Below are positions 2,740 to 24,570 of a stretch of 64,000 nucleotides of DNA, piece by piece (position 1 is the stretch's first letter; the number at the start of each line of letters is the position of its first letter). The position numbers were made by a program, and so were the translations under genes. The notes beneath the pieces are model-generated. The model searched no databases. It was given only the letters and a program-made list of their open reading frames with translations, and was not told the DNA's origin. The stretch is taken from the NCBI GenBank assembly GCA_034521425.1, contig JAXHMP010000001.1, positions 2,779,182-2,843,181 of the forward strand, read 5' to 3'. Origin of the DNA: Bacteroidota bacterium (GTDB lineage Bacteria > Bacteroidota > Bacteroidia > Bacteroidales > JAIOZK01).

Positions 2740-3341
2740 ATGAGTAAGCCAACAAACATCCACCCCGTATTCCACCAGATCCTCACCCGCGCCGACAAGG
2801 AGAAGTTCCTCAGGCAGCGCTCCTGTGTGATCTGGATGACGGGGCTGAGCGGCAGCGGCAAAACCACCATTGCCCGCCACATCGAAATTGAACTGAACAA
2901 AAGAGGTCACCTCACCCAGGTGCTCGACGGCGACAACATCCGCACCGGCATCAACAACAACCTGGGCTTTACCGAGGAGGACCGCATCGAGAACATCCGG
3001 CGCATCGCCGAAGTCTCCAAACTCTTCGTCGACTGCGGGGTGATCTGCATCAACAGCTTCATCAGTCCTACGAAGGAGATCCGACACCTGGCCATGGACA
3101 TCATCGGCAGGGAAGACTTCATCGAGGTATTCGTAAACGCCCCCTGGAAGTCTGCGAGCAGCGTGATGTAAAAGGCCTGTACAAAAAAGCCCGGGAAGGG
3201 AAAATTAAGAATTTTACGGGCATTGACGCCCCCTTCGAAAAACCCGAAAAAGCACAAATCGAACTCCTGACCGGAAAACAAAGCATCGCAGAAAGCATGG
3301 AAGTGGCCCTGGAATACATCATTCCACGGGTGACTTATTGA
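2740..3341 (+). pseudogene. cysC: Adenylyl-sulfate (APS) kinase with one apparent frameshift
   Basis: P-loop GLSGSGKTT plus LDGDNIR, FISP motifs. The frame breaks at a C5 run (3140-3144). With one more C the ORF reads ..[40 protein letters not shown] ending at 3341. This could be a sequencing error or a recombination scar. Confidence 0.85.
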
Positions 3342-3586
3342 ATTCCTGTCTGCCGACAGGCAGGAATCCCGATGAGGCCGAATCGGGACAACAACACAAA
3401 ACAACAAACCAATTAGATCAATTAGATTAATTCGATGACAAAAAAATCCGATGATCATCATCTAATTCAACGAATTAAACGCCGCACACATCGTAATGAA
3501 ATGAAGATAGGGAATGAATGATTGGATGGATGGATGGATGGATGAATGGATGGATGGATGAATGAATGGATGGATGAATGAATGAA
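3338..3586. repeat. Composite spacer module, copy 1 (hairpins + AACAAAC + 'aattagatcaattagattaattcgatgac' block + GGATGRATG STR)
   Basis: Direct repeat of 4542-4873: ttgaattcctgtctgccgacaggcaggaatcccgatgaggccgaatcgggac...cgaattaaacgcc...ggatggatgaatg array. Confidence 0.85.
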
Positions 3587-3652
3587 AAAGTGCCTAACAA
3601 TCACACAATCCCGGGCTGATCATTTTTATTATCTTTGAATAAAGCCTTAGAA

Positions 3653-3914
3653 ATGAAAACCATAAAATACATAGTTTATAAAGATGGAAAACACTACGTT
3701 TCGCAAAGCTTAAACGTGGATATTTCAAGTTTCGGGAATACGATTGAAGAAGCAACATGAATTCTACTTTAAAAGCCAAAGAGGAAGCCATCAAAAATAT
3801 GTGAACAACAGCAAAACTGTGATTGTTCCCGCAAACAAAAAAGAGATACCCCTTGGCACATTGAATTCAATCAGCCGAAGTACAGACCATACCGACTTGC
3901 AAAAACACAAATAA
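3653..3914 (+). pseudogene. HicB/HicA-like toxin-antitoxin remnant
   Basis: MKTIKYIVYKDGKHYVSQSLNVDISSFGNTIEEAT* is HicB-N-like. It is followed by FYFKSQRGSHQKYVNNSKTVIVPANKKEIPLGTLNSISR (HicA-like core). Both parts are truncated or fused. Confidence 0.4.
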
Positions 3915-3927
3915 CTTATTAACTTTG
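3897..3927 (+). promoter_or_regulatory. Bacteroidetes-type promoter (TTG - 20 nt - TAACTTTG)
   Basis: TTG at 3897-3899 and TAACTTTG at 3920-3927, about 37 nt upstream of the DUF4160 start. The same TAACTTTG module occurs before three other cassettes. Confidence 0.5.
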
Positions 3928-3963
3928 TTAAAAGCAGATGTTTTAATAAATTACTTAAAAACT

Positions 3964-4200
3964 ATGCCTGAGATTTTTCGGAAATTTGGATTTGTTTTTT
4001 TCTTTTACTCAAATGAAGGACAAGAACCCATGCATGTGCATGTGAGAAAGGCTGGTGGTTTTGCAAAATTCTGGATCGAACCGATAGAACTGGAATTTTC
4101 CCAGGGAATGAAAGTTGGGGATATTAAAAAGGCTGAAGAACTCGTTTACGAGTATACAGAACTTATAAAAGATAAGTGGAATGAAGTACATGGTAGCTGA
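3964..4200 (+). CDS. DUF4160-family small protein
   Basis: MPEIFRKFGFVFFFYSNEGQEPMHVHVRKAGGFAKFWIEP.. matches the DUF4160 pattern. Overlaps its DUF2442 partner. The ORF-track start at 3925 is probably too early. Confidence 0.7.
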   Translation: MPEIFRKFGFVFFFYSNEGQEPMHVHVRKAGGFAKFWIEPIELEFSQGMKVGDIKKAEELVYEYTELIKDKWNEVHGS

Positions 4201-4435
4201 ACTAATGTTTAAGGCAGTGGAAGCCTGGTATGAAAAGGGTAAAATATGTATCATGTTATCTGATAATAAAGAAATCAGGTTTCCGGTTACTTTAAATAAA
4301 GAATTACGAAATGCTCCTGTTGATAAGCTGGCAAATATTGAATTAATTTGTGATGGTACAGGACTGCATTGGCCTGATCTGGATGAGGATTTATCAGTTA
4401 CGGGAATAATTGAAGGAAGATATGGCAAAGCTTGA
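4181..4435 (+). CDS. DUF2442-family small protein (partner of DUF4160)
   Basis: ..GLHWPDLDEDLSVTGIIEG.. is the typical DUF2442 C-terminus. Overlapping gene pair. Confidence 0.7.
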   Translation: MKYMVAELMFKAVEAWYEKGKICIMLSDNKEIRFPVTLNKELRNAPVDKLANIELICDGTGLHWPDLDEDLSVTGIIEGRYGKA

Positions 4436-4541
4436 GGCTGTCTTTTATTCTTAAACCTGTTCAGTGTTCAGGCACAACACCAAATTCAATGAAACCCGTC
4501 TTTCAGAAGACGACGCCAGGAGGTGAACTGAAAGTCGTTGG

Positions 4542-4873
4542 TTGAATTCCTGTCTGCCGACAGGCAGGAATCCCGATGAGGCCGAATCGGGACAACAACA
4601 CAAAACAACAAACCAATTAGATCAATTAGATTAATTAGATGACAAAAAAATCCGATGATCATCATCTAATTCAACGAATTAAACGCCACACCAATCCTAA
4701 TGAAATGAAGATAGGGAATGAATGATTGGATGGATGAATGAATGGATGAATGATTGGATGGATGAATGAATGGATGAATGATTGGATGAATGGATGGATG
4801 GATGGATGATTGGATGAATGGATGGATGGATGGATGATTGGATGAATGGATGGATGGATGGATGAATGGATGA
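4542..4873. repeat. Composite spacer module, copy 2 (longer GGATGRATG STR)
   Basis: Same module as 3338-3586, with a ~160-bp ggatgaatg/ggatggatg array at 4716-4873. Confidence 0.85.
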
Positions 4874-4880
4874 AGGGACT

Positions 4881-5250
4881 AAATTAATTTGAAAATGAGA
4901 AAATTTGAAAATTTGAAAATTAAAACCGCTACGCGGGAAATTCACCAATACCGCTTATCGTGGAAATAAGACATAAGCTTTTGGAAATAGATTTCAATAA
5001 CCAGGGTGTTTTTGCGGTGTAGAAAACGAACAACATGTTGGGTAGTTTTGTAGCCTAAGCGCCTAAATTAATTTGAAAATTTGAAAATGAGAAAATTTGA
5101 AAATTAAAACCGCTACGCGGGAAATTCACCAATACCGCTTATCGTGGAAATAAGACATAAGCTTTTGGAAGTAGATTTCAATAACCAGGGTGTTTTTGCG
5201 GTGTAAAAAACGAACAACATGTTGGGTAGTTTTGTAGCCTAAGCGCCTAA
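4881..5250. repeat. Tandem duplication of a ~185-bp unit
   Basis: 4881-5064 and 5065-5250 are near-identical (aaattaatttgaaaat..accgctacgcgggaaattcaccaataccgcttatcgtgg..tagcctaagcgcctaa). No convincing ORF. Confidence 0.85.
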
Positions 5251-5448
5251 TTATACAAACATACAGTATAGCCCCAACACAAAACATTTACACTGAGTCA
5301 TTCGACAGGCTCATGATAAACTCTGCCGAAGTGACAAACAAATTAGATCAATTAGATTAATTCGATCAATTCGATGATAAAAATCATCTGATGACAAAAA
5401 AAACTGATTAATGTTTAGTGTCTTTAACTTAAGATGAATACCAAACAC

Positions 5449-5479
5449 TTGCAAACACACATTTTACACATTAACTTTG
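5449..5479 (+). promoter_or_regulatory. Portable promoter module (TTG - 20 nt - TAACTTTG)
   Basis: gatgaataccaaacacTTGcaaacacacattttacacatTAACTTTGtaatgaattaaaaa. Near-identical to the 6875-6905 module upstream of an unrelated cassette. Confidence 0.55.
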
Positions 5480-5502
5480 TAATGAATTAAAAATAACTGA
5501 AA

Positions 5503-5709
5503 ATGTTTGATTTATCCATATTACCGAAAAAAGCTCAGGATGAGTTATTTTCTTATTATCAATACCTGGTTGAGAAGTATAGTCGTAAAAAATCAACCAA
5601 TATTCATAAGGAGAAGTCAAGAATAAAAGAAATAAACTCCTTTTTCGACAAGTATAACCTTGATTTCAAAGGATTTTCATTTAACAGGGACGAAATTTAT
5701 GAATCCTGA
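5503..5709 (+). CDS. Putative antitoxin of PIN toxin
   Basis: 68-aa ORF overlapping the PIN gene by 11 nt. No family recognised. Confidence 0.5.
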   Translation: MFDLSILPKKAQDELFSYYQYLVEKYSRKKSTNIHKEKSRIKEINSFFDKYNLDFKGFSFNRDEIYES

Positions 5710-6103
5710 AATTACTATTGACAGCAATGTTCTTGTTTATGCCTTTAGCAGCCAGGACAATACAAAAAAGTCAATTTCGAAAAAGATATTATCGGATTGT
5801 GTAAAGATTAGCATACAGTCTATTAATGAAACATTGTATGTTCTGTATCGAAAGTTTGATTTCAAAGCAGGAGAATTACTCAAAATACATAAGTTTTTTG
5901 AAGAAACATTTATCATAAAAAATCTGGACATTACAACAATTACAAAAGGTTTGGAAATTTTAAACACTTACAACTATAGTTACTGGGACAGTATGATGCT
6001 TGCTGCTGCAATTGAGTGTGATTGTAAAATCATATACTCGGAAGATATGCATCACAAACACCTCATCGAAGAAAAACTGGAGATAATAAATCCGTTCATT
6101 TGA
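5699..6103 (+). CDS. PIN-domain (VapC-like) ribonuclease toxin
   Basis: MNPEITIDSNVLVYAF (N-terminal acidic D) and ..YWDSMMLAAAIECDCKIIYSEDM.. (C-terminal acidic residues). Typical size and operon position. Confidence 0.7.
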   Translation: MNPEITIDSNVLVYAFSSQDNTKKSISKKILSDCVKISIQSINETLYVLYRKFDFKAGELLKIHKFFEETFIIKNLDITTITKGLEILNTYNYSYWDSMMLAAAIECDCKIIYSEDMHHKHLIEEKLEIINPFI

Positions 6104-6150
6104 ATGTAATTATTGGGTATTCAGCCTAATCCAAAACCCAACAATTTATA

Positions 6151-6290
6151 CTGAGTCTGCCGAAGGGCCTGTCCTGAGCCTGCCGAAGGGCCTGTCCTGA
6201 GCCTGCCGAAGGGCCTGTCCTGAGCCTGCCGAAGGGCCTGTCCTGAGCCTGCCGAAGGGCTCATGATAAACTTTGCCGAAGTAACAAACA
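6151..6290. repeat. 21-bp tandem repeat ctgagcctgccgaagggcctgtc (x5) ending in ..gctcatgataaactttgccgaagtaac
   Basis: Five head-to-tail copies. Shorter versions at 5285-5335, 14928-14965 and 24270-24335. Confidence 0.9.
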
Positions 6291-6648
6291 ACAAACACAG
6301 AAGCCGAAGACACATTCAAAACCAATGATAACTTTGCGACTCTGCGTGAAATAATTCGTGTAAATCCCTGCCTGCCGGTAGGCACGGTGTGTAATTCCCC
6401 GCTTATTGCGGGACAGGCGTGGACAAAAAATTAGATCAATTAGATTAATTCGATGACAAAAAAATCATCCGATGATCCATCATCTAATTTATCGAATTAA
6501 ACCCTGTGTAATTGTCGATATCATAGATCAAGTTGAATAGTTCAGGATTTATTACACAGGGTAAACGAATTAAACGCCGTGGCCGTCATAATGAATGGAA
6601 GAAAGGAAATATTTCACGCAAAGCCGCAAAGACGCGAAGTTTTGACGG

Positions 6649-6817
6649 AATGAACTACCCCGAGGCAAGCCTGCGGGGTATCATTATGAAACATTCATTT
6701 GATTCGCCCCAAGGGGCGGGGAATATTACCCACGAGATCCCTCGACAAGCTCGGGATCAGTTCGACTTTGCTTTTTCAGTTCGCTATCGCTCCTAAAAAA
6801 TCAGTCTCACTGATTTA
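6649..6817. mobile_element. 169-bp MITE, copy 1 (IS3-family derivative)
   Basis: aatgaactaccccgaggcaagcctgcggggtatcattatg...cagtctcactgattta. Copies also at 54156-54324 and 63114-63282. Its ends resemble those of the IS3-family element at 44970-46197. Confidence 0.75.
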
Positions 6818-6874
6818 ACGCCGCACCCGTCGTAATGAAATGTAGATAGGTAAAAACTGATGAATACCAAACAC

Positions 6875-6905
6875 TTGCAAACACACATTTTACACATTAA
6901 CTTTG
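6875..6905 (+). promoter_or_regulatory. Portable promoter module (TTG - 20 nt - TAACTTTG)
   Basis: Same ~70-bp leader as 5425-5502, here upstream of the UPF0175 gene. Confidence 0.55.
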
Positions 6906-6931
6906 TATTGAATTAAAAACAACTGAAAACA

Positions 6932-7183
6932 ATGAGTTACCGAATAACATTAGAAATACCGGATAGAGCTTTTTCCGTCTTGCGTGATAATCCGAATAAA
7001 TTTGCAAGAGAGTTATTGGAAGCAGCTTTATGTAAATGGTATGAGCAGGGTAAAATATCCCAATCTAAAGCTAGCGAAATTGCTGAAATCTCCAGGTACG
7101 AATTCCTTGAGATATTAAAAAAGCATGACGTAAATCCTTTTCAGTACACACCTTCCGACCTGGATGCAGAGATTAAACTTTAA
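6932..7183 (+). CDS. UPF0175-family antitoxin-like protein
   Basis: ..ELLEAALCKWYEQGKISQSKASEIAEISRYEFLEILKKH.. is the typical UPF0175 signature. Followed by a DUF3368 (PIN-like) gene. Confidence 0.7.
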   Translation: MSYRITLEIPDRAFSVLRDNPNKFARELLEAALCKWYEQGKISQSKASEIAEISRYEFLEILKKHDVNPFQYTPSDLDAEIKL

Positions 7184-7189
7184 CAAGGC

Positions 7190-7489
7190 ATGAAAATCAT
7201 ACTGAATGTCTTCTCCGGCAATCTTCCTGGCTAAAATCGAATTAATTGATTCGTTGCCAATGTTTTGTGATCAGCTTATCATTCCGGATGGTGTAATTAA
7301 TGAAATACAGAAACATCACGATGAAGCATCACGATGGCTTAAACAGAATGAATAATTTTAAAAATGCAACAGGCTAAATTAATCAATGACGCAACTGCCC
7401 CACTTACCAGGCTTCGTGAAAAAGGATTCAGAATAGATGATGCTTTATTTCAGCACGCTTTAAAAATAGCACATAACAACTTACACTGA
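7190..7489 (+). pseudogene. DUF3368 (PIN-like) toxin, decayed
   Basis: Starts MKIILNV.. and ends ..LREKGFRIDDALFQHALKIAH. Multiple stops and frameshifts in between. Confidence 0.55.
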
Positions 7490-7514
7490 ACACCAAACAC
7501 CAAACACCAAGCAC

Positions 7515-7748
7515 ATGCTAATATCAAAATTTTCAAAATACCTCTTCTGGTCATACCGGAAGAATGCCGACCTTCCTGAAGAAATTGTTATTCAACGGGT
7601 GTTGGCTTTTGGCGAGATAGCTGATTTGATTTTCTTAAATGATTTGGTTCCGGGAAGTAAGATTGAAGAGGTGCTGAAAAACTGGAAAGAAAAAGAGAAA
7701 TACAAGAGGCGGATTAACTTTTACAACAAAGTAATCAATCAGGCATGA
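7515..7748 (+). CDS. Small conserved protein upstream of AbiEii-type nucleotidyltransferase (antitoxin candidate)
   Basis: 77 aa with a 4-nt overlap onto the nucleotidyltransferase. A second related pair lies at 61825-62809. Confidence 0.5.
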   Translation: MLISKFSKYLFWSYRKNADLPEEIVIQRVLAFGEIADLIFLNDLVPGSKIEEVLKNWKEKEKYKRRINFYNKVINQA

Positions 7749-8410: not shown

Positions 8411-8536
8411 AACCCCAAATTGACCGCCAGCAGACTGCCCCGATCATTCGGGGAAATCCCGGGAGCGCAGCGATTCGGAACACAAAACACCAAAAAAATT
8501 AGATCAATTAGATTAATTAGATGACAAAAAAATTGG

Positions 8537-8700
8537 ATGGATGATTGGATGGATGGATGTGGTAGAATCATACAATCATACAATCATACAATCCCGTCTC
8601 ACCTCAGGCGAGACGAGGATCCTCGACTAAAAGTCGGGACCATACAACCATACAACCAACCAATCATACAACCATACAACCATACAAACCTTCAATTCGT
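8537..8700. repeat. GGATGGATG STR + CATACAAT STR + double hairpin (second copy of the 111-245 module)
   Basis: cccgtctcacctcaggcgagacgaggatcctcgactaaaagtcgggacc at 8593-8641, flanked by catacaa(t/c)c units. Confidence 0.8.
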
Positions 8701-8810
8701 GACATTTGTGCAATTCCCCGCTTATTGCGAAACAGGCGTGGATAAAAAAATTAGATTAATTAGATGAAAAAAAAAATTAGATGACAAAAAAAATCCGATG
8801 AAAAAAAAAT

Positions 8811-9138
8811 TTAACACCCGCTTAACTTGACAAACCCCCATAAATGAGTAAATTTGTTACTCAATATTGATTGAAAGGGTATGGATAAAGAAGCACAAAT
8901 AACAATCGGTATTACTCAATCTTTATCCAACCTGCTGATACATCATCTTTCAGCAAGCATTGTTAGCCCCCTGTGGGAGTGAGAGGGCGGAGCTGTGATG
9001 TTGGTGCTCAGTGTTTACGACTGCCGAAACTACAAACACTTGTGTTCATTTGTGGATGAAAAAAAAGGAGAGGGGAGAAAGGAGAACAGTTAATCAATGA
9101 ACTGGGTAAGAGCAGTTATGGTAAGTATTTGCAAAAAA
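8811..9138 (+). repeat. ~320-bp conserved promoter + leader, copy 1 (upstream of AlbA_2 ATPase gene)
   Basis: TTG (8827-8829) - 19 nt - TAAATTTG (8849-8856), followed by a conserved untranslated stretch. Copies at 10931-11234 and 14750-14873. Confidence 0.7.
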
Positions 9139-9273
9139 TAATGGACAGGTAGTGAATTAAAAATAAAGTTACACAATATACATTTTGAAACTCGTAGAGG
9201 GCGCCGGCTCCATAGGCCAGATTGTTATAAAATAGAATACCAAATACCAAACACATAACACCAACCATAACCA

Positions 9274-10608: not shown

Positions 10609-10930
10609 AAGCATAAATAGCAAGGTTGTGGGTCCAAAAGTTACACAGTGTACCACAACTTGTCCCGCCCTGGCGGGAGAGTACAGCACAGAGTAAAACC
10701 AAACACTGTGAAACTCTGTGAAAAACACCGTGTAACTCTCCCGACAATACGGGACAAGTTGTGCAACTAAAACACTGTGAAACTAAAAACAACAAACACC
10801 CCCTTGAAATATGCTTTTTCCACGAATTTCAGGAGGGAGACCCAACACCAAACAACAACCAAATTAGATCAATTAGATTAATTAGATGACAAAAAAAATT
10901 AGTTGAAAAAAAATCCGATGAAAAAAAAAT

Positions 10931-11234
10931 TTAACACCCGCTTAACTTGACAAACCCACATAAATGAGTAAATTTGTTACTCAATATTGATTGAAAGGGT
11001 ATGGATAAAGAAGCACAAATAACAATCGGTATTACTCAATATTGATTAAAAGTTTATGTTAGCCCCCTGTGGGAGTGAGAGGGCGGAGCTGTGATGATGG
11101 TGCTCAGTGTTTACGACTGCCGAAACTACAAACACTTGTGTTCATTTGTGGATGAAAAAAAAGGAGAGGGGAGAAAGGAGAACAGTTAATCAATGAACTG
11201 GGTAAGAGCAGTTATGGTAAGTATTTGCAAAAAG
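10931..11234 (+). repeat. Conserved promoter + leader, copy 2
   Basis: TTG 10947-10949 and TAAATTTG 10969-10976. Homologous to 8811-9138 with an internal deletion. Confidence 0.7.
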
Positions 11235-11337
11235 TAATCATAAGCTAAGCCAACTATATCTGATGAACTGTCAAATAGCACCCCCTAAACCCAAACTCTA
11301 AACATTTATAAAATCAACTGAATATCAAAAATTCAGA

Positions 11338-13551: not shown

Positions 13552-13676
13552 TTACGCCCACAAGCGTAACTCCGGGAGGCGTAGTAGGTGTTTGGTACTT
13601 CGGCATGAGCCCTTCAGGCTTGCCCAGCCTTCCGGCAAGCTCAGGACAGGCCTGTCGAATGGCTCGAGTATAAATT

Positions 13677-13732
13677 GTTCGGTGTTCGGTGTTCGGTGTT
13701 CGGTGTTCGGTGTTCGGTGTTCAGTGTTCGGT
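13677..13732. repeat. GTGTTCG heptamer STR
   Basis: About 8 tandem units. The same heptamer occurs at 15743-15838 and 17690-17740, and as its complement (CGAACAC/CAAACAC) at 7490-7513 and 14885-14920. Confidence 0.9.
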
Positions 13733-13794
13733 GCAGCATAACACAAAACAACAAAAACTGTAATTTTACCTAAGTATTAGCAAAAGGCGAAATC

Positions 13795-14199
13795 ATGCGA
13801 TTGAGCTCTCAAAAAATTCAATTCATTAAAAACGGTCTTAAAAACCTGGCACCCGAATCTGAAGTTTACATTTTTGGTTCCAGGGCAGATGATCAAGCCA
13901 AAGGGGAGATATCGACATATTGTGGCTGACAAAAGAAAAGATACCACAACAAAATACCAGAAAATTTAAAGTTGAGTTTTACAAGAATTTCGGATGGCAA
14001 AAAATAGATATCGTAAACTTCACTTTTAAGCAGGAAAACACTTTCAAAGATATAGCCTTAAGCCAGGCAGTGGAATTATGAATACATCCCTGAAGCTATA
14101 CAGGAGCTTGTCCCGGATGTTATAATGCTAACGGAAAGACTCGAAGAAAATATCAATACATGCCGTGAATTCCTGTTGGCTCGCAACTGGATAAATTAA
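13795..14199 (+). pseudogene. MNT nucleotidyltransferase + HEPN-like cassette, deletion derivative of the 23003-23898 cassette
   Basis: MNT ..VYIFGSRADDQAKG(fs)DIDILWL.. has a G4-versus-G5 frameshift. The second gene is reduced to ATGAATACA|TCCCTGAAGC..ARNWIN*, an internal deletion relative to 23443-23898. Confidence 0.7.
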
Positions 14200-14220
14200 T
14201 TGTTTGGTACTTCGGCAAAA

Positions 14221-14340
14221 CATTTACCCTGTTTACCCCGCCTGTCCCGCTGAAACCCTCTTCTCGTTTCACTGGGATTGATTCTCTTCACAATCAACCG
14301 GGGTGGAATCACGAAGTGAATATTCCATCAGGGACAAACA
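14221..14340. repeat. Structured ~120-bp repeat, copy b
   Basis: Same element as 12291-12400. Confidence 0.8.
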
Positions 14341-14354
14341 ACAAACAATAACCA

Positions 14355-14750
14355 AATTAGATCAATTCGATTAATTCGATGATAAAAATTAGATGACAAA
14401 AAAATCATCCGATGATCCATCATCTAATCTATCGAATTAAACGAATTAAAATTTGCTGATAATCCATGAGCCTTACCATTGACAGGATCCGCAGCAATAA
14501 CAAAAAGACCAAAGAACCTGGCAGCAAAAAATTAGATCAATTAGATTAATTCGATAATAAAAAAATAAATGACAAAAAAATCATCCAATGATCATCATCT
14601 AATTTATCGAATTAAACGAATTAAAATTTATAATAATCCATGAGCCTGACAATTGACAAGAACCAAAGCAATACGGACAAAAACCAGCCAGCAAAAAAGT
14701 AGATCAATTAGATTAATTAGATGACAAAAAAATTAGTTGACAAAAAAAAT
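14355..14750. repeat. Tandem ~170-bp units built on the 'aattagatcaattagattaattcgat..atcgaattaaacg' block
   Basis: Units at 14355-14529, 14530-14697 and a partial one at 14698-14750. Single copies of the block occur at about 3412, 4612, 5340, 6428, 8493, 8750, 10862, 16493, 17231 and 24347. Confidence 0.8.
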
Positions 14751-15276: not shown

Positions 15277-15280
15277 TTTT

Positions 15281-15732
15281 ATGAGTCACAGGGATCACAT
15301 CGAAATCCTGCAAGAACACACAGAATCATTGCAAAATGCGCTTAAAAAAATGGTTGAAGCGATCATTGGAGATTTGTAAACAGCATCCCATTGACAACCT
15401 CAGTCCGGAGCAATGGATGCATACGAAGGCTTAACGAGTCGTTTTGCACGTGTATGCGATATCCTTTTTAGCAAGCTCTTCCGAACTATCTTCTTCTTAG
15501 AGCAAGGGGAAGCAGGAACATGGCTAGATGTGCTTCTGTTTATGGAAGAAAATGTCATTGACAATACGAAAGAGGCAAGGCTTCTCAAAGAACTCAGAAA
15601 TGACATTGTGCATGAGTATGCTGAACTATGAACATAATTTTCAGGGAAGTGATGGATCAAGCCCTTTTTGCTCCAATACGCAAAGGAAGCACTTCTCAAA
15701 GTTCAGAACTAAACGAAAAATTGAAAAGTTAA
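15281..15732 (+). pseudogene. HEPN-like partner of MNT, decayed
   Basis: ..AYEGLTSRFARVCDILFSKLFRTIF..RNDIVHEY (R-x4-H HEPN motif). Related to 23443-23898. Frameshifts near 15400 and 15630. Confidence 0.6.
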
Positions 15733-15742
15733 GTTACGGATT

Positions 15743-15838
15743 GTTCGGTGTTCGGTGTTCGGTGTTCGGTGTTGTGTTCGGTGTTCGGTGTTCGGTGTTC
15801 GGTGTTCGGTGTTCGGTGTTCGGTGTTAGTGCTCGGTG
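15743..15838. repeat. GTGTTCG heptamer STR
   Basis: About 13 units. Confidence 0.9.
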
Positions 15839-16269: not shown

Positions 16270-16343
16270 TTTCATTGCTCCTTGTTTTGTGTTCAGTGTT
16301 TCGTGTTCATAGTTAAGTGTTCAATGTAAGACTAAACAACAAA

Positions 16344-16466: not shown

Positions 16467-16716
16467 AACAAACAACAAACAAAAAACAAATTAGATCAAT
16501 TAGATTAATTCGATGACTAAAATTATCCGATGATCATCATCAAATTTATCGAATTAAACGCCGTGCCTGCCGGCAGGCAGGAATTAATTGCCGCATCCAT
16601 CGTAATGAAATGAAGATAAGTAATTATCGTTAAACTTGTGAAGTACAGAGCAATAAATCAATGCATACGAAAGTTTTGTATCTTTGATACTACAATAGTT
16701 TAGGACTGAAAAAAAA

Positions 16717-16967
16717 ATGAGTTACCGAATAACTTTAGAAATACCGGATAAAGCTTTTTCCATTTTGCGTAATAGGCCCGATAAATTTGCAAGAGAATTA
16801 TTGGAGGCTGCCTTGTGTAAGTGGTATGAACAGGGTAAAATCTCTCAGTCAAAAGCAGCCGAAATAGCCGAATATCCAGGGACGAATTCCTTGAGATATT
16901 AAAAAAGCATGACGTAAATCCTTTTCAGTACACACCTTCCGACCTGGATGCAGAGATTAAACTTTAA
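16717..16967 (+). pseudogene. UPF0175 antitoxin-like gene, frameshifted duplicate of 6932-7183
   Basis: Near-identical N-terminus (MSYRITLEIPDKAFSILRNRPDKFARELLEAALCKWYEQGKISQSKAAEIAE). Frameshift near 16875. Confidence 0.7.
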
Positions 16968-16973
16968 CAAGGC

Positions 16974-17101
16974 ATGAAAATCATAGGCTAAATTAATCAA
17001 TGACGCAACTGCCCCACTTACCAGGCTTCGCGAAAGGATTCAGAATAGATGATGCTTTATTTCAGCACGCTTTAAAAATAGCACATAACAACTTACACTG
17101 A
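16974..17101 (+). pseudogene. DUF3368 remnant (larger deletion than 7190-7489)
   Basis: ATGAAAATCATA|GGCTAAATTAATCAATGACGC.. joins the start of the gene directly to its last ~100 bp. Confidence 0.6.
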
Positions 17102-17282
17102 ACACCAAACCCCGATGAGCTACGAATCGGGACACAAAACAACAAACACCAAACACCAAACATTTACCCTGTGGAATCACGAAGTGAATATTCCATCAGG
17201 GACAAACACAAAACAACAAACAACAAACAAATTAGATCAATTAGATTAATTCGATGACAAAAAAAATCATCCGATGATCAAA

Positions 17283-17411: not shown

Positions 17412-17414
17412 GAG

Positions 17415-17852: not shown

Positions 17853-17934
17853 GTGGACAAAAAACTATAGTCCTTTTGCCAAATAGACTAAAATATTTGG
17901 AATGGACAGACCGATACGATATATTTCCTGTTTT
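17853..17934. repeat. Left copy of ~80-bp direct repeat flanking the IS (long target duplication)
   Basis: gtggacaaaaaactatagtccttttgccaaatagactaaaatatttggaatg.. matches 19561-19643, including a degenerate copy of the darT start. Confidence 0.8.
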
Positions 17935-19560
17935 CCGCATTTTTTTGGGACACCCTCTGAAACCCTTGTTAATATTGGATTTTATATTTAACTTGGGTGT
18001 CCCAAAATGTCGCTCATGTTTATTCGCAAGAAACCCAATCCTTCGGGAAGCACTTCTGTACAATTGATTCAGAAGATCAAGGGCAAGTATAAGGTGGTAA
18101 AAACGATCGGTTGCGCCACTACGTTGCGCGAAATTGAAACATTGGAACACATTGCTCGTCAGGATATTGAGTTACTGACTGCCCAGACTGAACTTTTTTA
18201 TAGCAAAGAGGATACGCTGATCGAAAATCTTGTTGCCTCGATCAGTAATGATGACATCCAAACCCTGGGCCCGGAACTCGTGTTCGGTAGGATTTATGAT
18301 AGTATTGGGTTTGATGCCATCAAGGAAGAAATGTTTCGTCACCTGGTCATAGCAAGATTGGCCTATCCTTTGAGCAAACTGAAAACCGTTGATTACTTGT
18401 ATCGTTATCAGCGGGTTTTATTGGATAGTGATGCTATATATCGCTTCCTGGACAAATTGAGCAGTAAGTTAAAGCCACAGATAGAGCAGATCGCCTTCAA
18501 GAACACGATGAAAGTTCTTCGGGGAAAAGTCAATATTGTTTTTTACGATATGACAACGCTTTACTTTGAGGCCAGTGATGAAGATGATTTGCGAAAAACG
18601 GGCTTCAGCAAGGACGGCAAGCATCAAAACCCACAAGTTTTCATTGGTCTTTTGGTAGGACTGAATGGATACCCGATTGGGTACGACATTTTTAAAGGAA
18701 ACACATTTGAAGGACACACCCTGATCCCATTCATTGAGAAGATGGCTAAGAAGTTCAACCTGGGAAAACCAGTGGTTGTGGCAGATGCTGGGTTGTTATC
18801 AAAAAGCAATATTGAGGCATTAGAGAACAAGGGATACGAGTACATTCTTGGTGCCAGGTTAAAAAACGAAACGGATCAACTTAAACTACAAATTCTTGAA
18901 TCGAAATTTGAAGACGCAACGATTCAAAGCTTCAAGCGAAAGGATAAATCAAGACTCATTGTTCATTACGCTTCAAGCAGAGCAAAAAAGGATGAGTATA
19001 ACCGCAAAAGAGGCCTGCGACGCTTAGAAAAGCGAATAAAAGCAGGCAGGTTGACCAAATCCAGTATTAACAACAGGGGCTACAATAAATATTTAAAACT
19101 GAGTGGCGAAGTAAGTATTGAAATTGACTACGACAAATTTGAAAAGGACGATCAATGGGACGGTCTGAAGGGTTATATCTCCAACACGAAAATGACAAAT
19201 CAACAAGTATTAGACAATTATAAACATCTTTGGCAAATCGAGAAAGCCTTCCGCATGTCAAAAACAGATTTGAGAATACGACCTGTTTACCACAGATTGC
19301 AAAATAGAATCGAAGCCCATATTTGCATTGTGTTTACAGCATACAGTATTTACAAGGAGCTTGAGAGGGCTTTGTATGAAGCAAATTCAACACTTTCCTT
19401 AAAGAAAGCAGCTGAGATAACACATAGGATTTATCAGATCACCTATACTTTACCGAGCGCTAAGCAAAGGAAATCCAGGTTGCTGAAAATGGACAAAAGC
19501 CAGGCGGAGTTGGTCAGAATCATCAACGAAAAATTTTAGGGTGTCCCAAAGCGGTATAAA
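17935..19560 (+). mobile_element. IS1634-family insertion sequence
   Basis: Terminal inverted repeat ccgcatttttttgggacaccct (17935-17956) versus agggtgtcccaaagcgg (19538-19554). One 510-aa transposase ORF. Long flanking direct repeats are a known trait of IS1634. Confidence 0.8.
18007..19539 (+). CDS. IS1634-family (IS4-related DDE) transposase
   Basis: Intact 510 aa. The N-terminus MFIRKKPNPSGSTSVQLIQKIKGKYKVVKTIG is characteristic of the family. Also has ..VVADAGLLS.. and ..YKHLWQIEKAFRMSKTDL..RPVYH. Confidence 0.85.
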   Translation: MSLMFIRKKPNPSGSTSVQLIQKIKGKYKVVKTIGCATTLREIETLEHIARQDIELLTAQTELFYSKEDTLIENLVASISNDDIQTLGPELVFGRIYDSIGFDAIKEEMFRHLVIARLAYPLSKLKTVDYLYRYQRVLLDSDAIYRFLDKLSSKLKPQIEQIAFKNTMKVLRGKVNIVFYDMTTLYFEASDEDDLRKTGFSKDGKHQNPQVFIGLLVGLNGYPIGYDIFKGNTFEGHTLIPFIEKMAKKFNLGKPVVVADAGLLSKSNIEALENKGYEYILGARLKNETDQLKLQILESKFEDATIQSFKRKDKSRLIVHYASSRAKKDEYNRKRGLRRLEKRIKAGRLTKSSINNRGYNKYLKLSGEVSIEIDYDKFEKDDQWDGLKGYISNTKMTNQQVLDNYKHLWQIEKAFRMSKTDLRIRPVYHRLQNRIEAHICIVFTAYSIYKELERALYEANSTLSLKKAAEITHRIYQITYTLPSAKQRKSRLLKMDKSQAELVRIINEKF

Positions 19561-19643
19561 GTGGACAAAAAACTATAGTCCTTTTGCCAAAATAGACTAA
19601 AATATTTGGAATGAGTATACCCGATACCATATATTTATTTCGC
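19561..19643. repeat. Right copy of the IS-flanking direct repeat
   Basis: See 17853-17934. Confidence 0.8.
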
Positions 19644-20245
19644 TTAATACATGTAGATAACCTTGAATACGTTCTAACCAAAGGGTTTTTAACGTGTCCC
19701 AATCATCATGCAAGGGATGAAAATTATATTAATATCGGTGATCAAACATTAATTGAAAGTCGAAATAAAAAGCAAATACCTGTTGAGCCCAGCGGATACT
19801 TTCATAACTATGTTGCGTTTTATTTTGGAGTCAGGCCACCAATGCTGTACGAAATACAAAAAGGTTTAACAAGGTTCTTAAACGACATCCCGGTGAAATC
19901 ATTTATCTGGTAACAACCTTTGATGCAGTGAAAGATGCCGGATTATCATATGTTTTTACGGATGGTCATGCTTATGATAATTTTACCCGGTTTTTTAATC
20001 ATGAAAGCGAGCTAAAACATGTAGACTGGAATGCGGTTAAGCTTAAAAGATGGAATGAAACAGAAGAAGATCCTGACCGTAAACGCAGGAAGCAGGCTGA
20101 ATTGTTGATTTATAATGAATTACCGTTAGAGATTATTAAGGCTTTTATCGCTTATGATGATACGGCTAAGAATAAAATTTTAAGTATCTTTGAAAAATAC
20201 ACTTTTAAATGTCACGTACTTGTAAAGCCACAATGGTATTACTGA
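19611..20245 (+). pseudogene. darT: DarT-like (DUF4433) ssDNA ADP-ribosyltransferase toxin, frameshifted
   Basis: YLFRLIHVDNLEYVLTKG..NIGDQTLIESR..YVAFYFGVRPPMLYEI and ..FTDGHAY..KRRKQAELLIY lie in two frames (break near 19900). The IS is inserted at its 5' end. Confidence 0.75.
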
Positions 20246-20246
20246 A

Positions 20247-21278
20247 ATGATTGAATTCAGAAAAGGAAACATAGTAAAAGCTGATGCCGAAGCCCTTGTT
20301 AATACAGAAATACTTTAGGTATTATGGGTAAGGTATTGCATTAGCATTTAAAAAGGCTTTTCCGGAAAATTATAAGCGTTACAAAGTAGCCTGTGACAAC
20401 AAAGAATTTACTATTGGAGAAATCCTCATTACGGAAACCGGAAGAATTACACCGAAATACATCATCAATTTTCCAACGAAAGCCCATTGGAAAGAAAAGT
20501 CGAAATTAGCGTATATCGAAAAGGGAATGAAAAGACTGGTGCAGGTGATTCAGGATTATGAAATCCAGTCAATAGCCATACCCCCTTTGGGATGCGGCAA
20601 TGGCAGATTAAACTGGGCAGGATGTCAAAAAAGTGATGCTTAGCGAGCTGGAGCGCTTACAGGAAAATATAGATATCATTATTTTTGAACCCGGATATAA
20701 TGACCAGACCACCGAAACCCAAAAAACCAATAACCTCACCCCGGCACGCGCGATGACTAACAGCTTTAAAGATTATCAGGTCTTAGGATATAGCATCAAT
20801 TTGCTGGTTGCTCAAAAGTTGGCCTACTTCATGCAACGCTTAGGAGAACCCTTAAGTCTGGAATATGAGAAAGGGATTAATGCCCGTATTCGCATCGCTT
20901 ACAGCATCTGCTCAAATATTTAAATGGCTCTTTTTGCAATTTCGGAACGAACAAACAAAACCCGGAACAAAAGTAACTCAATTATACGGAACAAGCCATC
21001 CATTATACACAAAACCAATTGAGCACTGAACAACAAAACCGGCTTGAAGAATTAAAGCAACTCACAGAAGGCTTTGAGTCACCCTATGGATTATAGAACT
21101 CTGGCAACGGTAGACTTTATCTACCAAAAAACAGGCATGATTGATAAGGACAAAGTTTCACAGGAAATTGGAAATGACCCACAGAAAAAGAGAATTAATG
21201 AAACCCTACCATATTGAAGTAGCCATTAATAGACTCATGGAATTTTACCAGCGCAAGCAGCTAACCCATACAGCATAA
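20247..21278 (+). pseudogene. darG: DarG-like macrodomain antitoxin, multiple frameshifts/stops
   Basis: MIEFRKGNIVKADAEALVNT..GIALAFKKAFPENY..IAIPPLGCGNGRLNW is a macro domain. The C-terminal DarT-binding part is fragmented. Confidence 0.7.
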
Positions 21279-21443
21279 TGGTTTATTGGTGATTCGCTGA
21301 TCAGTGAATAGTAGGAAGTAGTTAGTAAATAGTAGATAATAAGCAGAGTAATCCGAATTATTGCGAATGGTTTGTTCTTGTTTAGTGTTCCTTGGTGCTG
21401 ATTAGACCAAACACAGAATAAAAAACACAAAACAAAAACAAAA

Positions 21444-21788
21444 ATGACCACCTGGAAAACCTTTGAAGAAATCGAATGCTGGCAACTAGCCAGGAGCTTC
21501 TGTACAGAGATATATAAAAATATCACGCAGTATAAAGGCTTGAATACTGACTATGCATTAAAAAGATCAAATCGAATCGGTCCTCTGGTAGCATCATGGA
21601 TAACATCGCAGAAGGATACGGATGGAGGCGGCACCAAAGAATTATTAGCATCCAGCATAGCAAAAGGCAGCGCAAGCGAATCTCGTTCTCAACTATACAG
21701 GGTTCTTGACCGGCAATACATTGATCAAGAGAAACATCAAGAACTACAGGAAAAAACACGCGAACTAATTAACAAAATCGTGGACTGA
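21444..21788 (+). pseudogene. Four-helix-bundle (23S rRNA IVS protein family) gene, frameshifted
   Basis: TFEEIECWQLARSFCTEIYK.. and ..KGSASESRSQLYRVLDRQYIDQE.. The middle segment (expected ..SIMDNIAEGY..) is out of frame. Flanked by GTTTGTT/AACAAAC arrays. Confidence 0.7.
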
Positions 21789-21880
21789 TTAGCTATCTTG
21801 GAAATCTGGTATAAAAGGAACCAAATACAAATAGATTCTGTTTGTTGTTCGGTGTTTCAGTGTTTGGTGTGGCGGTAGGC

Positions 21881-22106
21881 AACAACAAACAACAAACAAA
21901 AAACAAACAAACAAAACTACAACAAACAAACAAACAGAAACAAACAAACCAAACCAAACAAACAACAAACAACAAACAACAAACAAACAAACAAACAAAC
22001 AACAAACAACAAACAAACAAACAAACAAACAAACAAACAACAAACAAACAAACAAACAAACAAACAAACAAACAAACAAACAAACAAACAAACAAACAAC
22101 AAACAA
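21881..22106. repeat. AACAAAC heptamer STR (~225 bp)
   Basis: The longest array of a heptamer that recurs in dozens of spacers. It creates spurious 100-aa ORFs on both strands. Confidence 0.95.
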
Positions 22107-22188
22107 ATGTCCAATCACGGCATATCCCAAATACTCTTATCAACTGATCATTGAAACATTAAGCAATGAGGAGCAGATACTCCAGGCA

Positions 22189-22461
22189 GTGCTATATGGT
22201 TCACGGGCTATTGGAAACGCCAGAAAAGGTTCGGATATCGACATTGCTATCAAGGCATCTACCATCAGTTATGAACTGATCAATACCCTGAGTACAAAGC
22301 TTAACCAGGAACTTCCTATACCCTATCATGTAGATGTGCAGCATTACGATACCATAAAAAATGAAGCATTGAAAAAACACATTGATGATTACGGTCAGAT
22401 TATTTACCAAAAACAACAAACACCAAACAACCAACACAAAACAACAAACACCAAACACTAA
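22189..22461 (+). CDS. MNT-type nucleotidyltransferase (minimal NTase) with STR-derived C-terminal tail
   Basis: LYGSRAIGNARKGSDIDIAI motif. The true start is probably further upstream, near 22130 at the STR edge. The last ~17 codons (QKQQTPNNQHKTTNTKH) are AACAAAC-type repeat. Confidence 0.7.
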   Translation: MLYGSRAIGNARKGSDIDIAIKASTISYELINTLSTKLNQELPIPYHVDVQHYDTIKNEALKKHIDDYGQIIYQKQQTPNNQHKTTNTKH

Positions 22462-22470
22462 AACAAAGAA

Positions 22471-22881
22471 ATGAACAGCAAAGAAATCCGCTGGAAACAA
22501 CGTTTTGATAACTTCAATAAGGCATATCTCAAATTAAAAGAAGCCATTGAAGATTTTGAAAATCTTGATCTCTTATCCAAAGAAGGATTGATCCAGCGTT
22601 TTGAATATTCCTATGAGCTGGCCTGGAAAACATTAAAGGACTTTCTTGAAAGCAGGCAGGTAGAAACAGGATTCCCCAGGGATGTCATTAAACAGGCCTT
22701 TGCATATGATATTATCGATGATGGGGAAATTTGGCTGAACATGCATAATCAGCGAAATTTATTAAGCCATACCTACGACGAAGAAAACTTTCACAAGGCC
22801 CTGGAATTAATCCGAAAACAGTATTACGAACAACTGAGTAAACTTCATCATTATTTGCAACTGCAAGTAGATAATGATTAG
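22471..22881 (+). CDS. HEPN nucleotidyltransferase-substrate-binding protein (HI0074 family)
   Basis: RWKQRFDNFNKAY..RFEYSYELAWKTLKDFL..RNLLSHTYDEE (HEPN R-x4-H). Intact, 136 aa. Confidence 0.8.
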   Translation: MNSKEIRWKQRFDNFNKAYLKLKEAIEDFENLDLLSKEGLIQRFEYSYELAWKTLKDFLESRQVETGFPRDVIKQAFAYDIIDDGEIWLNMHNQRNLLSHTYDEENFHKALELIRKQYYEQLSKLHHYLQLQVDND

Positions 22882-23002
22882 TTTTTTGTTCAGTACTTCG
22901 ACAAGCTAGTTAAACTGTTCGGTGTTCAGTGTTCCAGTACTTCGACGGGCTGAGTCTAATTTTTAATTAATTTTACCTAAGTATTAGCAAAAGGCGAAAT
23001 CT

Positions 23003-23446
23003 ATGATTTAGCTTTAAAAAATTCAAATTCATTAAAACGGCTCTAACTGCATTATTCATAAAATAGCTTAATGTACTCAAATAATGCAGGTTAACCCCGG
23101 CTTAAAAAGCTTGCAATTTGAAAACGAAGTGCATCAAATTGGTAGCTTTCTCAGTCGTGGATGAATTCAGCGTTTCACCTTTTAGGCTTATGAATTATCC
23201 GGGTTAAAAACCTGGCACCGAATCTGAAGTTTACATTTTTGGTTCCAGGGCAGATGATCAAGCCAAAGGGGGAGATATCGACATATTGTGGCTGACAAAA
23301 GAAAAGATACCACAACAAAATACCAGAAAATTTAAAGTTGAGTTTTACAAGAATTTCGGATGGCAAAAAATAGATATCGTAAACTTCACTTTTAAGCAGA
23401 AAACACTTTCAAAGATATAGCCTTAAGCCAGGCAGTGGAATTATGA
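23003..23446 (+). pseudogene. MNT nucleotidyltransferase, disrupted by a ~150-bp insertion near its 5' end
   Basis: Same gene as 13795-14081 (..VYIFGSRADDQAKGGDIDILWLTKEK..), but the 5' part is interrupted. Confidence 0.65.
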
Positions 23447-23898
23447 ATACAAATAACAGCAATCATATAGAATTACTTGCAGATAATTGGGAATTGCTGC
23501 AAACAGCTTGAAAACCTTGAAGAGATCCGTCGAAAAAGCGCAATCAATTGGTCAAAAGGAAGAATACACATTTGAAGAAATGGAAGCCTTTGATTCACTG
23601 ACATCAAAATTTAGCCGAAGCTCCGATATTTTTCTGCAGAAAATTATGCGAACGCTGTGGGAGCTTTTACATGAAGATAGAATGCCCCTGATCGATATGC
23701 TCAACAAAGCCGAAAAGCTGCACATAATTCACTCGGCAGATGCTTTGCTGGAAGTTCGTGATATACGACAGGATCTACCATGAATAGTCCCTGAAGCTAT
23801 ACAGGAGCTATCCCGGATGTTATAATGCTAACGGAAAGACTCGAAGAAAATATCAATACATGCCGTGAATTCCTGTTGGCTCGCAACTGGATAAATTA
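23443..23898 (+). pseudogene. HEPN-like partner, frameshifted (full-length version of the 14079-14199 remnant)
   Basis: ..EEMEAFDSLTSKFSRSSDIFLQKIMRTLW.. with frame breaks near 23487 and 23783. Ends ..ARNWIN*. Confidence 0.6.
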
Positions 23899-23920
23899 AT
23901 TGTTTGGTACTTCGGCAAAA

Positions 23921-24036
23921 CATTTACCCTGTTTACCCCGCCTGTCCCGTGAAACCTCTTCTTGTTTCACTGGGATTGATTCTCTTCACAATCAACCGGG
24001 GTAAAATCACGAAGTGAATATTCCATCAGGGACAAA
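23921..24036. repeat. Structured ~120-bp repeat, copy d
   Basis: Same element as 12291-12400. Confidence 0.8.
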
Positions 24037-24391
24037 CAACAAACAACAAACAACAAACATTTTTACAAGTGAACATAAAAACTTACAGAAAACACTCGAA
24101 CTAATCAACAAAATCGGAGGATTAATAGCCTATCTGAAGAAATCAAACTACAAAGGAACAAAGTTCAAATAAAACACTGAACAACAATCACCCCGTTGAA
24201 ATATGCTCGTACCTCGCATTTCACGGGGTAAACCAAACAACAAACAACAAACAACGAACAACAAACAATTTATCCTGAGCCTGCCGAAGGGCCTGTCCTG
24301 AGCTTGCCGAAGGGCTCATGATAAATCTTGCCGAAGTAACAAAAAAATTAGATCAATTAGATTAATTCGATGATAAAAATTAGTTGAATTA

Positions 24392-24570
24392 GTAAGCCGA
24401 TGAATAAGATGTCCCGGAATTGTTAAATGCATACCAAAAAAACTTCACCGCAATAAATGCGCCTTTGGAAAGTCCGGATTGTGCGGATTGAGTTGTTGTT
24501 TGGGGAGGAGAGTATTGGGGAGAGTATGAGAATGGCGTTGGAGTATATTTTGCCGCGGGTGACTTATTAA
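24392..24570 (+). pseudogene. cysC: Orphan, diverged 3' end of an APS kinase gene
   Basis: Reads ..DVPELLNAYQKNFTAINAPLESPDCAD(fs)ELLFGEESIGESMRMALEYILPRVTY*. Intact cysC reads ..[52 protein letters not shown]. About 60% of residues are identical by eye. Confidence 0.8.

Follow-up and report, generated by a model that had tools for sequence, protein, structure and literature searches.

How an array of selfish cassettes can come to lie within an operon, bracketed by two versions of the end of one and the same gene, is the question raised by a stretch of 64,000 nt from a Bacteroidota bacterium (contig JAXHMP010000001.1, positions 2,779,182 to 2,843,181; hereafter, the window). In it, cysC, the gene for an adenylyl-sulfate (APS) kinase, is followed by ~21 kb of toxin-antitoxin and defence cassettes, and at the far border of this island a second, orphan cysC 3′ end precedes a glycan locus. 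Our comparisons robustly support the island to be an insertion into an ancestral junction between cysC and the glycan genes, produced when two diverged cysC alleles recombined within the final ~135 bp of the gene, one redundant, decaying cysC tail being left behind. Relatives are referred to by locus, L001 and L082 being loci of the Bacteroidales metagenome-assembled genome (MAG) Tobar13.5m-G7, the closest public relative. The features on which the argument rests are as follows.

2740–3341, plus strand: cysC (adenylyl-sulfate kinase), with a PF01583 match, complete bar a one-base deletion; stop codon TGA at 3339–3341
3140–3144, plus strand: run of five C (C5) with a −1 frameshift where six C are expected; single-base gap relative to L001 and L003
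3207–3341, plus strand: duplicated tail of the intact cysC, codons 157–200 and stop; A/C-ending codon style, third-position G+T 0.32
3342–24437, plus strand: island of co-oriented toxin-antitoxin/defence cassettes parted by repeat-rich spacers
24438–24570, plus strand: orphan cysC 3′ end, 44 codons and TAA; pseudogene with G/T-ending codons, third-position G+T 0.82
24575–24841, plus strand: 5′ part of an (acylneuraminate-type) cytidylyltransferase gene, the glycan locus's first, matching PF02348 positions 1–60, frameshifted further on

With one C restored, cysC encodes a product of 200 amino acids that is 94% identical to P0001, the kinase of Tobar13.5m-G7. Taking an APS_kinase domain with a P-loop, the NFTGIDxPFE motif and a length of ~200 amino acids as the marks of an adenylyl-sulfate kinase, the intact gene belongs to this family (PF01583; full length). 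An initial annotation, made from the bare letters, had the gene end at 3341 with one frameshift, and so it does. It further placed the frameshift 10–15 bp from the start of the duplicated homology and suspected a junction scar, neither of which is borne out. The C5 run lies at least 60 bp before K157 (3207), the first duplicated codon, and the lesion consists of one absent C (GCACCCCTG in L001, GCCCCGTTG in L003, with the protein conserved on either side), an error type found throughout the window: alignment to relatives reveals recurrent single-base homopolymer gaps, e.g. CACC-G, CAAA-C and GGGG-A. Given this distance and the look of a homopolymer error, the frameshift is much more likely to represent a sequencing error or a very recent mutation than a scar.

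The orphan reads KNFTAINAPLESPDCAD and, past a −2-nt frameshift near 24487, IELLFGEESIGESMRMALEYILPRVTY up to its own stop codon. By BLASTP it aligns to residues 157–200 of the intact protein with 30 of 44 identities (E = 2e-20); tblastn recovers it within the window (E = 1.5e-8), and tblastx also retrieves the pair. It shares the strand of cysC and stays in register with the gene's true C-terminus. Three changes have turned the invariant NFTGIDxPFE motif into NFTAINAPLE, and the orphan is a decayed fragment rather than a member gene of the adenylyl-sulfate kinases. The significant pairwise alignment of the tails, the small deletion private to the orphan and its position after a spacer repeat had all been anticipated in the initial annotation; the copy is real, but its extent is 24438–24570 instead of 24392–24570. 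Homology had been thought to begin at the codons RDV (~3155). Upstream of K157 (3207 and 24438), however, the best local alignment of 3120–3206, or of the L001 equivalent, against 24360–24437 scored at shuffle level (p = 0.44–0.59). An extension to RDV or to the frameshift was therefore rejected, and the duplicated piece measures ~135 nt. A search of a 5.8-billion-protein set with the orphan peptide returned no candidate sharing three words, so that an orphan-like tail is not known from any intact gene, and a search for further cysC relics, covering the window and the initial 10 kb of the islands of relatives, found none. On its right, the orphan is separated by at most ~15 nt from the cytidylyltransferase (CTP_transf_3) reading frame, and on its left it follows a spacer repeat that folds no better than shuffled sequence:

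24347–~24405, plus strand: last spacer-repeat copy, truncated at the orphan junction and lacking the 3′ hairpin arm; fold z −0.13

Another stranded 3′ end is seen just upstream of the orphan, at 24083–24172, consisting of the last ~30 codons of a 23S_rRNA_IVP gene (ending in LELINKIGGLIAYLKKSNYKGTKFK and a stop codon) with 87% DNA identity to a gene of the L003 island.

The two tails differ at 12, 6 and 34 first, second and third codon positions, respectively, corresponding to 24 synonymous and 14 non-synonymous codons. As the differences are mostly third-position and synonymous, the tails diverged as working genes, under selection in separate genomes; the pattern is one of working genes and not of the decay of a recent duplicate. 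At the DNA level, the orphan is most similar to the tail of L001 (70.5% identity) and least similar to that of the window's own gene (60.6%). The two also share a codon style: third-position G+T amounts to 0.84 in the working tail of L001 and 0.82 in the orphan, as against 0.32–0.41 in the working tail of the window and all other relatives. In L001, whose tail sequence is confirmed by two independent assemblies, the style sets in abruptly after codon 158 (0.27 to 0.86; log-likelihood ratio 25), and the orphan begins at codon 157, which indicates a G/T segment of equal extent in both genomes. The working tails of the window and L001 agree in 40 of 44 amino acids, yet differ at 30 of 44 third positions, nearly all being A/C in the window and G/T in L001 (12375–12509) where they differ. 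The intact window tail itself is of ordinary composition and at the usual distance from outgroups.

Despite this divergence, both copies end in the same 13-mer, which occurs just twice in the window:

3327–3339, plus strand: terminal 13-mer CGGGTGACTTATT, copy 1, identical in the intact tail and the orphan
24556–24568, plus strand: terminal 13-mer, copy 2, at the end of the orphan

Among the 29 amino acid-identical codons with synonymous alternatives, five are the same codon in both tails, and four of these are the last four, CGG GTG ACT TAT (p = 2e-4 at this terminal position; p = 5e-3 if a run of four may lie anywhere). CGG and ACT are specific to the window, the compared relatives having AGG for the arginine and ACG, ACA or AGT next to last. 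To the right of the 13-mer, the intact gene runs into GAATTCCTG..., a truncated spacer module found complete at 4494–4790 and in L081, and the orphan into AATTACC... and the cytidylyltransferase gene. As a candidate attachment (att) core, the 13-mer is present at both termini with significant clustering, but it is short and not conserved at the cysC ends of relatives.

Similarity to L001 is also distributed unevenly along the intact gene:

cysC nt 1 to ~330: ~95% identity to L001
cysC nt 331–510: ~83% identity to L001
cysC 3′ end: ~70% identity to L001

The window and L001 differ at 12 sites in 320 nt versus 61 in 283 nt (Fisher p = 1e-11), and past nt ~375 L001 is no nearer to the window than are L003 and L077. 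At third positions, 29 of 151 differ before K157 and 30 of 44 after it (p = 2.5e-9), and the divergence of the tail surpasses that of every 45-codon window of the neighbouring transporter gene. These comparisons indicate cysC to be a mosaic gene. Polarising the window–L001 differences by outgroups gave a balanced picture over nt 321–480 (12 versus 14) and an L001-derived tail (22 versus 11), and did not settle which lineage was replaced.

The same spot is occupied in relatives. L082, L081 and L087 share the order NusG/UpxY-like gene, ugd and/or epimerase gene, cysD, cysN-APS kinase fusion, SLC13 transporter gene, cysC and toxin-antitoxin island, and L003 and L085 have transporter gene, cysC and island within their readable part. 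By this order, the window lies within a polysaccharide operon of the Bacteroidales UpxY type, one that provides for its own synthesis of 3′-phosphoadenosine 5′-phosphosulfate (PAPS). The cassette arrays after cysC differ among these five relatives in content, genome by genome, and match the operon in orientation. The islands of the window and L001 have the same ATTAGAT spacer family and the same first cassette (DUF4160/DUF2442) and are, judging by these shared parts, sisters. One relative, L077 (cysC 88% identical), is free of an island; its glycan genes begin 670 bp after cysC and include an epimerase and a DegT aminotransferase gene ~70% identical to those of the window, with a different gene immediately downstream of cysC. 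Flanks of relatives were examined to 10 kb, the distal island borders lying beyond. Over 10 kb on each side, there is one stand-alone cysC per locus (L001/L082, L003, L077, L081, L085, L087), the only other APS-kinase domain being that of the cysN fusion (~35% identity); a second complete cysC, which would speak against insertion, or a relic was found in none of them. As for the gene beyond the orphan, the 83-amino-acid product of the cytidylyltransferase frame has a single close protein match, the source genome's own record P0121 (99% identical), and a metagenome scan with its N-terminus gave a best identity of 68%, with cysC nearby in 0 of 80 loci.

Pfam matches in the island (scanned in plus-strand stop-to-stop segments of at least 35 and minus-strand segments of at least 60 amino acids) all lie on the plus strand, the minus strand yielding none. 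They comprise HicA, DUF4160/DUF2442, PIN, UPF0175 (twice), DUF3368, AbiEii, Unstab_antitox, DUF4258/DUF2283, Schlafen (SLFN) AlbA_2/HATPase_c_4 (twice), ATPase_2, DarT with Macro, 23S_rRNA_IVP and, three times, a Polbeta nucleotidyltransferase with HEPN-like partners (NTase_sub_bind). The initial annotation had seen no recombinase gene here. An intact transposase gene of an insertion sequence (IS) is in fact present, for which the repeat tool found no terminal inverted repeats:

18007–19539, plus strand: IS transposase DDE_Tnp_1, intact open reading frame of 510 amino acids (PF01609, E = 6e-17), mid-island and at neither border

As regards integrases and resolvases the claim holds, the scan detecting no such domain on either strand of the island or beside either border; nor was a tRNA, tmRNA or Rfam element found as an insertion target. 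The cassettes are parted by a recurrent spacer, the first copy of which lies near the cysC stop codon:

3412–3484, plus strand: first spacer-repeat copy, ATTAGATCAATTAGATTAATT..., one of 12–13 copies, none of them outside 3412–24347

The spacer motif, ATTAGATCAATTAGATTAATT(C/A)GATGA..ATCTAATT..CGAATTAA, is itself made of three tandem 9-mers, occurs on the plus strand and in the island only, and folds, in its full copies, into an imperfect hairpin. Apart from the window, only its sister L001 (L082 10848–20075) has this ATTAGAT-containing family in abundance.

How, then, did the island enter? The version we prefer, at a probability of about 40%, is a single crossover in the terminal block, with the orphan as a passenger donor copy from an L001-like host. 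Which way the event ran, where the crossover fell and whether the DNA came in as a circle or a linear piece are what we infer here. Ancestrally, cysC would have been followed within ~15 nt by the cytidylyltransferase gene, in a long, UpxY/NusG-led operon with sulfate activation genes of its own (cysD, cysN, SLC13 transporter gene, cysC). An incoming toxin-antitoxin/defence block may then have carried the cysC tail of its previous host, which would have been similar to L001 with its G/T tail directly linked to a sister island, and a single Campbell-type crossover in or beside the shared block CGGGTGACTTATT would have integrated it. The resident cysC would stay intact, taking from the insert just the stop codon and what lies beyond, and the donor tail would land at the far border as a useless relic, to decay later. 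Its left edge, fused to a truncated spacer repeat, would mark the closure junction of the incoming piece. Either short-homology recombination by the host or a recombinase whose gene lies elsewhere in the genome may have carried out the exchange; the island offers no candidate. Internal duplications, IS insertion and cassette turnover would later have reshaped the array, and with all cassettes oriented along the operon, transcription toward the glycan genes could continue. This single-crossover version accounts for the 13-mer, the equal extent of the G/T segments, the sister islands and the ordinary working tail. The initial annotation had also proposed 21 kb to be inserted into the end of cysC; insertion and bracketing by two tails stand, but its confident naming of the orphan as the gene's original end does not, as the ordinary intact tail, the shared 13-mer and the G/T extent matching L001 fit a donor copy at least as well.

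Several observations weigh against the single crossover. The break in window–L001 similarity at cysC nt ~330–375 needs a separate recombination event, whereas the displacement model discussed below predicts it directly, and 13 nt of identity is short for a RecA-type exchange. The orphan and L001 share 17 of 28 amino acid-identical codons, about the expectation from composition alone, so the likeness of their tails could be compositional convergence. No model accounts for the 30 of 44 third-position differences between the working tails, which exceed saturation at two-fold sites. Neither a circular form, a donor genome nor, within the 10-kb flanks, a relative's distal island border was seen, and the collections searched contained no close relative of the window's glycan locus. 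A genome with an empty site, in which cysC has the same cytidylyltransferase gene as its neighbour, the direct check called for by the initial annotation, was sought in these collections and not found.

Among the alternatives, C-terminal displacement, the model of the initial annotation, reverses the roles of the tails: the working tail would have been imported with the island, and the orphan would be the original end. DNA of a related strain (the 3′ third of cysC plus island) would have used the resident cysC body as an anchor, with a crossover at nt 330–375 and the far end joined illegitimately at resident codon ~157. Such homology-facilitated illegitimate recombination is documented and has been proposed for orphan arrays of type VI secretion systems (T6SS) and Rhs (PMC5361080). 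As such a geometry demands, the drop from ~95% to 83% identity is located upstream of where the orphan begins, and an ancestral G/T tail would make the orphan group with the tail of L001, as it does (70.5% versus 60.6%). The excess divergence between orphan and L001 is spread roughly evenly over codon positions (13/6/20), as in neutral decay, the orphan abuts the glycan gene, and the last spacer repeat is truncated at the joint. However, a window-specific 13-mer identical at both 3′ termini is not predicted by displacement, and the match between the orphan edge (codon 157) and the L001 change-point (codon 158) is left as a coincidence. Displacement moreover needs a donor with an A/C tail on an L001-like island, a combination seen in no genome, and because the L001 island directly follows its G/T tail, the G/T tail of the ancestor would not abut the glycan gene. 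Taken with these difficulties, we regard displacement as a serious contender but rather unlikely.

Site-specific integration by a tyrosine or serine recombinase that is encoded elsewhere or was lost, with the 13-mer as att core and a cysC-like arm in attP, would explain why each border carries a direct repeat of the target 3′ end with an identical 13-nt block, why the insertion falls exactly at the stop codon and why relatives have islands at the same spot; e14, for instance, inserts into icd, of which a 3′ end is left stranded. Yet the lack of an integrase or resolvase domain in the island or beside its borders, the patchwork of small cassettes without phage or conjugative genes and the lack of conservation of the 13-mer at the cysC ends of relatives all make it improbable, and a fixed crossover cannot give both the arrangement of the window (G/T tail stranded) and that of L001 (G/T tail working). 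About equally improbable is an origin of the orphan on the glycan side, either as an arrival with an acquired glycan locus in a mirror-image, one-sided recombination or as the remnant of a cysC paralogue truncated by the island. The tight, operon-like spacing to the cytidylyltransferase gene, the variability of glycan loci (L077 has other genes after cysC, sharing epimerase and aminotransferase at ~70%) and a codon style foreign to the window's own cysC are in its favour, but the absence of a second stand-alone cysC within 10 kb in any relative, the clade-specific residues and terminal 13-mer that the orphan shares with the resident gene, and the 0 of 80 related cytidylyltransferase loci with cysC nearby are not. 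Finally, the many single-base indels of the window raise the question of chance similarity or an assembly artefact in an error-rich long-read MAG. Both were rejected on the E-value of 2e-20 over 44 residues and the register with the true C-terminus and stop codon; 61% DNA identity between the copies cannot stem from strain collapse, and the same gene model is in the public record (P0121), so we attach practically no weight to this explanation.

Placed among known systems, the cysC-tail feature resembles gene-end-duplicating insertions and displacement arrays, but belongs to neither of them, nor to integrons, for want of an integrase, of toxin/immunity logic and of attC sites. Displacement arrays were compared on the basis of Rhs, CDI (contact-dependent growth inhibition) and T6SS effector-immunity loci (Jackson 2009; Poole 2011; Kirchberger 2017, PMC5361080). 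As in these, a constant 5′ body is followed by an incoming module with its own 3′ end, an older end is stranded downstream (24438–24570), divergence inside the gene is mosaic (95% to 83% to 70%), and arrays grow at one locus and vary among close relatives. Unlike in these, the gene is a housekeeping-type kinase of a polysaccharide operon and not a polymorphic toxin, 21 kb of unrelated toxin-antitoxin/defence cassettes intervene, the relic is single and it may be the incoming rather than the displaced copy. In place of a toxin end with an immunity gene, an ordinary APS kinase C-terminus is followed by a spacer or by the cytidylyltransferase gene.

Elements that target a gene's 3′ end and bring a substitute end include e14 and phage 21 in icd as well as tRNA- and tmRNA-targeting islands. 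With elements of this kind the window has in common a target 3′ end repeated directly at either border (3207–3341 and 24438–24570; 30 of 44 amino acids), an intact gene, a short block identical in both copies and a site occupied in several relatives. It differs from them in having no integrase or excisionase gene, no phage or conjugation genes and, at the borders, no integrase, the Pfam scan finding only the mid-island DDE transposase; the repeats are 61% identical outside the 13-nt block, and the window and L001 do not agree in the position of the crossover. Gene-end duplication is thus a known kind of scar, found here without an integrase gene in the island.

Many small, co-oriented, toxin-antitoxin-rich cassettes with a directional inter-cassette repeat and variable content also recall integron arrays and clusters of attC sites lacking integron integrases (CALINs). 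The spacers here, however, are mixtures of short tandem repeats and hairpins lacking attC-like architecture, and a metabolic gene precedes the array, which lies within an operon. No integrase domain (intI) was found between the SLC13 transporter gene and the glycan locus, and no attC-type R″/R′ pair (sought as R″-L″...L′-R′, RYYYAAC...GTTRRRY) within −60/+160 nt of 12 spacer repeats; the whole island holds two attC-like pairs, against 4.1 ± 2.3 in shuffles. For the lack of attC-like R″/R′ boxes, an integron or CALIN reading was rejected. Genes next to hypervariable surface-polysaccharide loci, such as gnd beside the O-antigen locus of E. coli, become mosaic by hitch-hiking. Here as there, divergence of the flanking gene climbs toward the variable region and recombination end-points fall inside it, but ordinary replacement recombination leaves no duplicated gene end.

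The array itself bears marks of recent change. Stretches duplicated within the island at 90–99% identity (13838–14355 and 23204–24053; 3338–3586 and 4542–4790; 8749–9142 and 10871–11238; 6926–7501 and 16711–17113) comprise whole cassettes with spacers, which indicates an array that is being remodelled in place. A spacer module with a 10-bp inverted repeat, AAACCCG.CTTTCAG.AG.CGACG.CAGGAGGTGAACTGAAAG.CGTTGGTTGAATT (4494–4560), is common to the window and the more distant L081 (10721–10800); the copy fused to the cysC stop codon is without this part. Intergenic tandem repeats of 7–9 nt, namely (ATGGATGA)n, (TGTTCGG)n, (AACAAAC)n, (GAGAGGT)n and (CTCATCT)n, make up spacers at 3490–3610, 4690–4900, 13660–13740, 15726–15834 and 21870–22120 and, outside the island, at 47764–47900, 50923–51108, 54958–55220 and 56633–56790, A/C-rich and G/T-rich arrays often being opposed across a cassette. 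A GC-hairpin-rich element of 170 bp (RNA fold z −2.8; no Rfam match) occurs three times at 99–100% identity (6649–6818, 54156–54325 and 63114–63283) and may resemble miniature inverted-repeat transposable elements.

Stranded gene ends recur elsewhere in the window, where the initial annotation had counted three copies of the gmd 5′ end and two of a family 2 glycosyltransferase (GT2) 5′ end, both of which are indeed seen:

47642–47780, plus strand: stranded gmd 5′ fragment a, 84% identical to the start of intact gmd (51139)
49848–49985, plus strand: second stranded gmd 5′ end (fragment b), 94% identical and sharing the junction of fragment a

The intact gmd (51139–52302) lies downstream of both fragments. 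At their common junction, GATCAT passes into GAGGTAACGAAGC and then (GAGAGGT)n, and each fragment is followed by a 23S_rRNA_IVP/bAvd-like four-helix-bundle gene (48420–48794 and 50555–50929). The GT2 N-terminus is present as a diverged colinear duplicate (~40763–41037 and ~41666–41943). In L085, a 132-amino-acid Epimerase_2 (UDP-GlcNAc 2-epimerase) fragment lies between cysC and the island (4820–5218), its L077 homologue measuring 384 amino acids. From gmd, GT2 and this epimerase fragment, it is reasonable to regard gene-end duplication as a recurrent by-product of insertion in this lineage, as had been suggested.

Beyond the island, small 23S_rRNA_IVP (four-helix-bundle) and PDDEXK_3 genes of this clade are wedged, at varying positions, between nearly all pairs of operon genes (ugd, epimerase, cysD, cysN, transporter, cysC, gmd and fcl; L082 1946–7991, L077 1452–4264, window 2191–2580 and 52411–52806) and may be mobile, gene-sized inserts. 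The glycan genes at 24575–47000 (e.g. 29300–30310) are frameshifted every few hundred bases, in nearly every gene; the IS and the GC-rich genes (transporter, cysC, gmd) are wholly or almost wholly intact, and compared with relatives the window mostly lacks single homopolymer bases. Most likely, these glycan-locus frameshifts reflect long-read assembly error, and such "pseudogenes" should not be taken at face value. This carries a practical warning, in that the cysC frameshift and many apparent pseudogenes of the window are probably assembly errors.

A bolder proposal, which we hold to be far from probable, is that integrase-less toxin-antitoxin islands spread among Bacteroidales polysaccharide operons equipped with a synonymously recoded, spare 3′ end of their target. 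If so, the ~130-nt G/T cysC module, which is in the working gene in L001 and stranded in the window, would serve as a homology arm that leaves the target intact whichever crossover occurs, and since nearly all synonymous sites differ, the flanking copies could not recombine to delete the island. Apart from this, the opposite codon styles of near-identical tail peptides may be a sign that duplicated gene ends are subject to selection or to a mutational process. The window provides a dated, base-level scar of how a 21-kb selfish array enters a surface-polysaccharide operon with the landing gene preserved and without an integrase encoded in the island. The spot after cysC is a hot-spot over a family-level clade of Bacteroidales and could serve as a natural system in which to study the exchange of defence and toxin-antitoxin islands.

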